Shown here: one piece after another, positions 33,001 through 36,000 of the stretch
Layout of the letters: each line of letters opens with the position of its first letter
Numbering within the stretch: position 1 is the first letter of the stretch
From: a virus
Lineage: Duplodnaviria; Heunggongvirae; Uroviricota; Caudoviricetes
Strand: one strand, 5' to 3'
Length of the DNA stretch: 42,050 bases
IMG/VR virus record: IMGVR_UViG_2718218402_000004
Location: 1-42,050 of that record
Program-made: the position numbers

Positions 33001-36000
33001 GCGCGCTGGGACACGCCGAAGGTGGTGAAGGGGGTGAGCTTCCTGCTTCGCCTGACCGTGGCAGCGGACGATGGCAGTGAGCGGCTGGTCAGTACGGCAA
33101 GGACGACGGAAACCACATACCGCTTCACGCAACTGGCGCTGGGGAACTACAGGCTGACTGTCCGGGCGGTAAATGCGTGGGGACAGCAGGGCGATCCGGC
33201 ATCGGTATCGTTCCGGATTGCCGCACCGGCAGCGCCGTCTCGGATTGAGCTGACACCGGGCTATTTTCAGATAACCGCCACGCCGCATCTTGCGGTTTAT
33301 GATCCGACGGTACAATTTGAGTTCTGGTTCTCGGAAACGCGGATTACCGATATCAGGCAGGTTGAAACCACAGCCCGCTACCTTGGCACGGGGCTGTACT
33401 GGATAGCCGCCAGTATCAATATCAAACCGGGCCATGATTATTACTTTTATATCCGCAGTGTGAACACCGTTGGCAAATCGGCATTCGTGGAGGCCGTCGG
33501 TCGGGCGAGCGATGATGCGGAAGGTTACCTGGATTTTTTCAAAGGCAAGATAACCGAATCCCATCTTGGTAAAGAGCTGCTGGAAAAAGTCGACCTGACG
33601 GAGGATAACGCCAGCAAACTGGAGCAGTTTTCGAAAGAGTGGAAGGATGCTAACGATAAGTGGAATGCCATGTGGGGCGTCAAAATTGAGCAGACCAAAG
33701 ACGGCAAACATTATGTCGCGGGTATTGGCCTCAGCATGGAGGACACGGAGGAAGGCAAACTGAGCCAGTTTCTGGTTGCCGCCAATCGTATCGCGTTTAT
33801 TGACCCGGCAAACGGGAATGAAACGCCGATGTTTGTGGCGCAGGGCAACCAGATATTCATGAACGACGTGTTCCTGAAGCGCCTGACGGCCCCCACCATT
33901 ACCAGCGGTGGAAATCCACCGGCATTTTCCCTGACACCGGACGGAAAGCTGACTGCTAAAAATGCGGATATCAGTGGCAGTGTGAATGCGAACTCCGGGA
34001 CGCTCAACAACGTCACGATTAATGAGAACTGTCAGATTAAGGGGAAACTGTCAGCCAATCAGATTGAAGGCGATATTGTCAAAACGGTCAGCAAGTCTTT
34101 CCCCCGCACGAACAGTTATGCCAGTGGCACCATCACGGTAAGAATCAGTGATGATCAGAAATTTGACCGGCAGGTCATGATACCGCCAGTGTTATTCCGC
34201 GGTGGTAAGCATGAGAATTTCAACAGTAATAACCAACAGTCATACTGGTATTCAACCTGCCGGTTAAGAGTGACCCGCAATGGTCAGGAGATTTTTAATC
34301 AGTCCACGACGGATGCTCAGGGCGTATTTTCCTCAGTTATAGATATGCCTGCCGGACAGGGGACGCTGACACTGACATTCACCGTATCTTCATCAGGAGC
34401 GAATAACTGGACACCAACAACCAGTATCAGCGATCTGCTGGTTGTGGTGATGAAAAAATCCACAGCAGGTATCAGTATCAGCTGAATTTTATAACCCAGA
34501 ACGGGCGTCAGAAATGACGCCTTTTTTATTGCAGAAAAGCGAGAGGTAATTATGCGTAAACTTTATGCCGCCATTTTGTCCGCAGCCATTTGTCTGACCG
34601 TATCCGGTGCGCCTGCATGGGCGTCTGAGCAGCAGGCCACGCTGAGCGCGGGGTATCTTCATGCCCGGACGAACGCTCCCGGTAGCGATAATCTTAACGG
34701 GATTAACGTGAAATACCGTTATGAATTCACGGACACGCTGGGGCTGGTGACGTCATTCAGCTATGCAGGAGACAGGAATCGCCAGATTACCCGTTACAGC
34801 GATACCCGCTGGCATGAAGATTCCGTGCGTAACCGCTGGTTCAGCGTAATGGCGGGGCCGTCTGTGCGCGTGAATGAATGGTTCAGCGCGTATGCGATGG
34901 CGGGTGTGGCTTACAGCCGTGTGTCGACTTTCTCCGGGGATTATCTCCGCGTAACTGACAACAAGGGGAAAACGCACGACGTGCTGACCGGAAGTGATGA
35001 CGGTCGCCACAGCAACACGTCTCTGGCGTGGGGAGCTGGCGTGCAGTTTAACCCGACCGAATCCGTGGCCATTGATATTGCTTATGAAGGCTCCGGGCAG
35101 TGGCGACTGGCGCACTGACGGTTTCATCGTGGGTGTCGGTTATAAATTCTGATTAGCCAGGTAACACAGTGTTATGACAGCCCGCCGGTTCAGGCGGGCT
35201 TTTTTGTGGGGTGAATATGGCAGTAAAGATTTCTGGTGTACTGAAAGACGGCACAGGAAAACCGGTACAGAACTGCACAATCCAGCTGAAAGCAAAACGT
35301 AACAGCACCACGGTGGTGGTGAACACGCTGGCCTCAGAAAATCCGGATGAAGCCGGGCGTTACAGTATGGACGTTGAGTATGGTCAGTACAGCGTTATTC
35401 TGTTGGTGGAGGGATTCCCGCCGTCACATGCCGGGACTATCACCGTGTATGAAGATTCTCAACCCGGTACGCTGAATGATTTTCTCGGTGCCATGACGGA
35501 GGATGATGCCCGTCCGGAGGCACTGCGCCGTTTTGAAGTGATGGTGGAAGAGGTGGCGCGTAACGCGTCCGCAGTGGCACAGAACACGGCAGCCGCGAAG
35601 AAGTCAGCCGGCGATGCCAGCACATCAGCCCGTGAGGCGGCAACCCATGCGACTGATGCTGCAGACTCAGCACGCGCAGCCAGCACGTCAGCCGGACAGG
35701 CCGTGTCGTCGGCTCAGTCAGCGTCTTCCAGCGCAGGAACGGCATCAGCAAAGGCCACTGAAGCATCAAAAAGTGCTGCCGCTGCAGAGTCCTCAAAAAG
35801 CGCGGCGGCCACCAGTGCCGGTGCGGCGAAAACGTCAGAAACGAATGCTTCAGCGTCACAACAATCAGCAACCACATCTGCATCCACCGCGACCACGAAG
35901 GCGTCAGAAGCTGCGACCTCGGCCCGGGATGCGGCGGCCTCAAAAGAGGCGGCAAAATCATCAGAAACGAACGCATCATCAAGCGCCAGTAGTGCCGCTT

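Follow-up and report, generated by a model that had tools for sequence, protein, structure and literature searches.

The 42,050-nucleotide (nt) DNA of virus record IMGVR_UViG_2718218402_000004 (Caudoviricetes; positions 1 to 42,050, referred to below as the window) contains a pair of oppositely oriented lambda-like morphogenetic modules, each with the gene order J, lom, side tail fibre gene. The J genes, named J1 in module 1 and J2 in module 2, encode the tail tip (central tail fibre) protein. Both have the same lambda/434-like J body and differ in their C-terminal tails. The explanation that we favour, with a probability of about 85% for the whole, is that two pre-existing alleles of the immunoglobulin (Ig)-like C-terminal receptor-binding domain (RBD) have been exchanged as cassettes, and that both alleles probably bind the porin OmpC. 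The two tails can be named, module 2 as the A8 type, most likely binding OmpC, and module 1 as the phage 434 type, probably also binding OmpC. The role of the J C-terminus in setting the host range, and its exchangeability, were recognised with the lambda h434 hybrids. The swap is already well-documented biology and both alleles are already known; a receptor complex has even been solved for the exact module 2 domain, so the observation has little import beyond annotation. The feature coordinates are collected in Table 1.

Divergence of the two J genes after a conserved hinge

The two genes have been compared after repair of a single base missing from J1, which allows the proteins to be aligned end to end. 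Over the 977 codons of the body the protein identity is 97.2%. Codons 1–420 are virtually identical, with a synonymous divergence (dS) of 0.010, and codons 421–980 show a dS of 0.21 against a nonsynonymous divergence (dN) of 0.023, which indicates purifying selection. From codon 978 to the stop codon the amino acid (aa) identity falls to about 46%, with six indels, a proportion of synonymous differences (pS) of about 0.8, which is saturated, and a dN of about 0.58. The original prediction, made from the sequence alone, had described two J copies that are near-identical over about 980 aa and then diverge. The alignments bear this out, the boundaries that it gave (34030–34485 and 3299–3760) are right to within about 20 nt, and both of the peptide strings that it quoted are present.

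The divergent part is preceded by a hinge of 16 codons that is identical between J1 and J2 at 48 of 48 nt, and most columns of the hinge peptide are invariant among 20 aligned sequences. Identity falls steadily from position 34018 on the plus strand and from 3781 on the minus strand, and a blastn comparison of the tail DNA with 7-nt words finds a single 44-nt similar stretch. Identity of 97% is back at 34495 and 3285, about 10 nt past the stop codons. The conserved terminator-like hairpins and the lom genes follow, and the lom copies of the two modules are 97% identical.

The Pfam domains FNIII-A_GpJ, Phage-tail_3, Ig_J, Ig_J_second, Phage_Tail_Tip and Ig_GpJ_C occur in this order in J2 and in the 1020-aa open reading frame (ORF) of J1, all six above the cut-offs. 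The tails continue the reading frame of the body in both genes and match Ig_GpJ_C (PF12421), with E values of 4.7e-36 and 4.4e-26 (the latter for the module 1 tail), in agreement with the earlier view of the C-terminal tail as the receptor-binding domain.

The module 2 tail belongs to the A8 type

A search of both tails against known receptor-binding domains places the module 2 tail in the A8 type and the module 1 tail in the phage 434 type. The last 181 aa of J2 (codons 952–1132) are 100% identical to “A8 gpJ 713” of the PDB entries 9wca and 9wcb (E 2.9e-115). According to the entry descriptions, 9wca represents the closed state and 9wcb the open state bound to OmpC of Escherichia coli EDL933; a paper describing the two entries has not been found in our literature search. 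A8 gpJ, a J variant found naturally in an E. coli prophage, has contributed its C-terminal part to a fusion with lambda J, joined at residue 964 (Brödel et al. 2024, Nature, PMC11338833). The fusion retargets lambda particles from LamB to OmpC, and a strain deleted for both lamB and ompC receives DNA only if OmpC is provided (PMC11338833). With K-12 OmpC in this strain, delivery by A8 reached 95% of the cells, compared to 2% for wild-type lambda (PMC11338833 supplement). In addition, the J2 tail is 99% identical to that of phage phi330, which fails to plate when ompC is deleted and regains this ability on complementation (PMC12502783). As OmpC binding has been reported for the identical sequence, OmpC is the most likely receptor of the module 2 tail.

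J2 matches lambda J in length and numbering, and the fusion point at aa 964 lies inside the natural hinge, so that the natural crossover hinge coincides with the engineered fusion point. On the other hand, the work on A8 gpJ used a chimera with the lambda J body, whereas the J2 tail is carried by a natural body that is 97% identical to that of lambda, in a prophage arm without cos and without the first ~41 codons of Nu1. The closest classical relative of the J2 tail is the tail of phage 21 J (OL657228), which has the same length and 81–83% identity. The body of phage 21 J is just 90–91% identical, and its N-terminal part is longer (1160 aa in total). The exact J2 protein has not been found on record in the databases.

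The module 1 tail belongs to the phage 434 type

The J1 tail and that of phage 434 J are 92–93% identical. Both extend for 160 aa after the hinge and align without gaps, and the about 12 substitutions are mostly located in or beside the variable loops described below. Identity is 95% to the Stx2c phage 2851 and 100% to a prophage J of E. coli 19KM2326N. The repaired J1 also has the length of phage 434 J (1137 aa) and is likewise followed by lom, a short stf and tfa, as in the h434 host-range block (OL657226); the J-lom-stf-tfa block of module 1 is collinear with that of 434 at 94% DNA identity. J1 differs from the 434 gene by a frameshift at codon 115, and the remaining head genes of module 1 are phage-21-like rather than 434-like. 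Since lambda with the 434 J in place of its own uses OmpC, the receptor of 434 (PMC3509688; PMC11101478), the module 1 tail most likely also targets OmpC.

Framework and variable loops of the tails

A model of the J1 tail has been obtained with AlphaFold2 from a 20-sequence alignment. The mean predicted local distance difference test score (pLDDT) is 76.5, with 80–93 in the core. Among PDB structures, the lambda RBD (8xck/8xcj) and the A8 RBD (9wca/9wcb) match the model best, at E values of about 1e-16. The alignment of the tail types shows the conserved motifs GT.TV, DD..FDRQ, NG, DMP.G.G and KK..GI.I on the strands and on three inter-strand loops. Four indel-rich blocks are found in the alternate loops, two of them following FP(K/R) and F.G and the other two preceding the DMP strand and the last strand. 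From the strand order, these four variable loops are expected to lie at one end of the beta sandwich. The lambda RBD inserts four bottom loops, L1–L4, into LamB (Ge and Wang 2024, PMC11101478), and the four blocks probably correspond to these receptor-contacting loops. Polymorphism within the 434 type also clusters at the variable loops (positions 56, 57, 67, 97, 98, 109, 158 and 163 of the 185-aa segment).

The lambda J RBD on LamB (PDB 8xcj/8xck) has the same Pfam domain, fold and framework motifs (DD..FDRQ, NG, DMP.G.G and KK..GI.I) as the tails in the window. All four variable loops, however, differ from those of the window tails in length and sequence. The J1 and J2 tails are 41% and 46% identical, respectively, to the lambda J tail, with indels in the loop blocks. 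When compared with lambda J about 978–1132, including L1–L4, neither tail shows the similarity expected of the LamB-binding type, and neither is the LamB-binding allele.

Weighing the receptor assignment

The original prediction had suggested a change of host range and named LamB-, OmpC- and FhuA-binding types for comparison. The two tails could indeed recognise different receptor proteins, with LamB, OmpF or some other outer-membrane protein as the target in module 1 and OmpC in module 2, in which case the swap would change the receptor class. The tails are just about 46% identical and have indels in all four variable loops, the J1 substitutions relative to 434 are concentrated in or next to these loops, and phage 21, with its tail related to that of J2, natively uses LamB and gains OmpC use by one J mutation (PMC11336670). 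Different receptors are nevertheless doubtful, given that the J1 tail is of the type of 434, whose J confers OmpC use, that the J2 tail is identical to the OmpC-bound structure, and that no evidence for any other receptor has been found. A change of receptor class is therefore not supported, and a host-range difference between the tails would probably lie in the OmpC variants that they recognise. By analogy with A8 and a third natural tail, 1A2, which differ in the OmpC variants accepted (PMC11338833), it is plausible that the two alleles in the window accept different OmpC variants.

Several points weigh against OmpC as the target of both tails. The single-mutation switch of phage 21 indicates that receptor choice is labile in this fold, which makes an identity below 100% no safe predictor of the receptor. 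Neither for the exact module 1 allele nor for the carriers of the closest relatives of the J1 tail (cdtI, 2851, Evi, 2B8, Ayreon and PhiR29_1) did the literature yield receptor data. In the classical h434 hybrids, lom, stf and tfa of 434 may be present besides J, in which case the OmpC dependence would not be rigorously pinned to the 434 RBD. The J1 tail model is of moderate confidence (pLDDT 76.5), with loop positions taken from the strand order and not from coordinates. Finally, J1 is frameshifted and both modules are without cos and early genes, so that expression of either RBD in a viable phage is not evident here.

Exchange of the tails as cassettes

J proteins from ten sources have been compared, each split at the hinge into body and tail. 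The lambda-like bodies of J1, J2, 434, 19KM2326N, 2H10 and lambda are 96–100% identical, yet they carry three tail types (434, A8 and lambda). The bodies of Pankowvirus 2851 and phi330 are 94% alike and just 70–74% identical to the lambda-like bodies; 2851 carries a tail of the 434 type (95–96% identity) and phi330 one of the A8 type (99%). The Pankowvirus pair, of which 2851 is the Stx2c phage, is therefore an independent natural instance of the same tail swap.

The tails fall into discrete types. A protein database search with the J1 tail gives matches at 86–98% identity and then a jump to about 50%. Clustering separates at least six tail types in E. coli, which are 40–64% identical to each other. 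The 1A2 gpJ tail (PMC11338833 supplement), compared by eye, appears to belong to a third type (cluster P0062) that is neither of the window tails. Among 5426 complete E. coli genomes, the A8 type is found in 1737 and the 434 type in 2083 (about 38%), counted as megablast matches covering at least 80% of queries that span each tail. Most database proteins that match the J tail are partial, and many of these lie on contigs of about 0.5–5 kb. A likely reason is that short-read assemblies break at repeated J genes; if so, tail-type counts from draft genomes would be unreliable.

Because the synonymous sites are saturated, the borders are sharp and the tails are found on unrelated bodies, the tail is regarded as an old allele that has been swapped as a cassette. 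The domain swap put forward in the original prediction is thus retained and, judged by these comparisons, the window is a real and clean example of RBD exchange in lambdoid J genes. As an alternative, one prophage could have been duplicated and rapid positive selection could then have made the tail diverge where it is, without foreign import. Receptor-binding loops are classic targets of diversifying selection, and the polymorphism within a tail type does cluster in the loops. Divergence in place is very improbable, however, when the tail pS of about 0.8 is set against a dS of 0.21 in the adjacent 560 codons and 0.01 in the first 420, together with the six indels, the sharp borders and the presence of each tail, at 95–100% identity, in unrelated phages with different J bodies. 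The saturated synonymous sites and the independent carriers rule it out.

A frameshift or an assembly artefact as the source of the C-terminal divergence is still less probable. Single-base indels do occur elsewhere in the window (J1 codon 115, K of module 1 and lom of module 2), and the junction between the modules has been found in no database searched. The tails themselves are open, in frame in both copies and match PF12421 end to end, the tail DNA itself and not just its translation is unalignable, and the tails are 92–100% identical to those of sequenced functional phages and to a solved structure. A frameshift artefact in the tail is ruled out by the reading frame, the Pfam match and the near-identical known tails. 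Hypermutation by a diversity-generating retroelement, suggested by variation limited to a C-terminal ligand-binding domain as in the Mtd protein of the Bordetella phage, is equally improbable, as the differences include indels and all substitution types rather than adenine-specific changes, and it is ruled out by the absence of a template repeat in the window, where besides self-matches only the 44-nt stretch in the other J tail was detected (a reverse transcriptase gene was not searched for).

Proposed mechanism

In the cassette exchange that we propose, the RBD alleles would be swapped by homologous recombination. The left crossover zone would be the almost invariant hinge (codons about 954–977), and the right crossover zone would be the conserved terminator and lom sequence just past the stop codon. 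The A8-type tail, as a trimer, would dock its variable loops into the OmpC trimer, which would trigger opening of the tail as in 9wcb. The 434-type tail of module 1, accompanied by 434-like lom, stf and tfa (the classical h434 block), would also target OmpC, and in this genome the J1 RBD would act only as a recombination donor.

A possible extension, which we put forward tentatively, is that the 434-type and A8-type domains are two structurally distinct ways onto the same porin that together cover different OmpC variants. The decayed module 1 would then be a silent cassette store, and a resident or incoming lambdoid phage could acquire an alternative tip from it by way of the conserved hinge and the lom sequence. 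The modules have a ~2-kb tract in common at about 100% identity, described in the next section, which would indicate that such an exchange has been recent here.

The side tail fibres of the two modules are also alike only in a shared N-terminal domain. As they differ beyond this domain, both adsorption organs are swapped between the modules.

Integrity and recent history of J1

J2 is a single uninterrupted reading frame, whereas J1 is split into two ORFs (6268–6711 and 3299–6361) by a 1-nt deletion that the original prediction had overlooked. In a five-way alignment, the lost base is present in J2, in the intact 3414-nt J of E. coli 19KM2326N and in phages 434 and 21. The deletion is located within a 48-nt phage-21-like patch, and the surrounding tract is otherwise 100% identical to J2. 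J1 is either a pseudogene or carries a sequencing error. As it stands, frameshifted and in a truncated prophage, J1 cannot provide a working tail tip in this genome.

J1 differs from the 19KM2326N J at 29 positions, including the deletion, and only one of these sites lies in J1 nt 1257–3413. By contrast, nt 1–1256 of J1 and 1.17 kb upstream are identical to J2 and not to 19KM2326N, except for the 48-nt patch. This region belongs to a tract of ~2 kb (5462–7533 in module 1 and 30265–32336 in module 2), comprising I together with the end of K and the initial 1250 nt of J, that is 100% identical between the modules, while the remaining J body outside it is about 5% diverged. The match of J1 to J2 rather than to its closest relative across this tract points to recent gene conversion between the co-resident modules.

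Organisation of the window

Two lambda-like prophages contribute their right arms to the window, where these meet head to head. Blastn comparisons with the annotated phage 434 and phage 21 genomes show both modules to be collinear with them, with J located after M-L-K-I and before lom and stf. Module 1 ends inside a phage-21-like major capsid gene E (minus strand) that is without about 54 codons, and module 2 begins inside a 434-like Nu1 gene (plus strand) that is without ~41 codons, hence the missing cos. Neither cos nor any early, lysis or integration gene separates the modules. The junction, which has not been found in the complete RefSeq E. coli genomes or the GTDB representatives, may have arisen by a large deletion between two neighbouring prophages in inverted orientation, or it may have been created during assembly. 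Module 1 is a decayed, truncated prophage.

The remaining head genes of module 1 are phage-21-like (92.6%) and those of module 2 are 434-like (97.7%). Identity between the modules is uneven over 9150–13834 and 23996–28649, with 89% in the tape measure gene and 76–80% in the V/G/T and Z/U regions, which is the usual lambdoid mosaic.

Table 1. Features of the two J genes, their flanks and the modules in the window.
Feature	Position	Strand	Description
J2, tail tip/central tail fibre gene J of module 2	31087–34485	+	Intact ORF, 1132 aa
Conserved hinge of J2	33970–34017	+	Codons 962–977, 16 aa
J2 RBD cassette, A8 type	34018–34485	+	155 codons; relative of the phage 21 type
Terminator-like hairpin after J2	34503–34530	+	Conserved; right cassette border
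lom of module 2	34552–35118	+	188 aa; Pfam Ail_Lom, E 2e-106; conserved right flank
Side tail fibre gene of module 2	35211–38632	+	946 aa, collar and fibre repeats; plus Tfa chaperone
J1, J of module 1	3299–6711	-	1137 aa if repaired; broken by 1-nt deletion
1-nt deletion in J1	about 6366–6369 (J nt about 343–346)	-	TTT to TT; frameshift at codon 115
Conserved hinge of J1	3782–3829	-	Same 48 nt as J2
J1 RBD cassette, phage 434 type	3299–3781	-	160 codons and stop
Terminator-like hairpin after J1	3253–3276	-	Conserved; right cassette border
lom of module 1	2629–3228	-	199 aa; Pfam Ail_Lom, E 6e-122; conserved flank
Side tail fibre gene of module 1	1260–2570	-	Short, 434-like, 436 aa; collagen repeats and Phage_fiber_C
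Module 1	about 900–15908	-	
Module 2	15909–38632	+	
Head-to-head junction	15908–15910		E (-) adjoins Nu1 (+), overlap of at most 2 nt

Single-base indels are also seen outside J. In module 2 lom, a 1-nt indel near 35096 alters and shortens the C-terminus, which would remove the last barrel strand. The K gene of module 1 has an extra T at 7534 (minus strand) relative to 30264/30265 of module 2, and its ORF is 202 aa compared to 247 aa; K is also annotated as frameshifted in the related prophage of E. coli 19KM2326N. An alignment to 19KM2326N over 9.8 kb contains 32 gap openings, and some of the indels in the window (J1, K of module 1 and lom of module 2) could be sequencing errors.

Type III secretion effector cargo is present at the outer ends of both modules (1–891 on the minus strand; 39121–39969 and 40837–42050 on the plus strand). 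It includes an NleH/OspG-like kinase, Cif and a gene within 38600–42050 that is annotated as NleG family/DUF1076 in related genomes. The G+C content of these regions falls to about 40%, and the cargo points to a host resembling enteropathogenic or enterohaemorrhagic E. coli or E. albertii.

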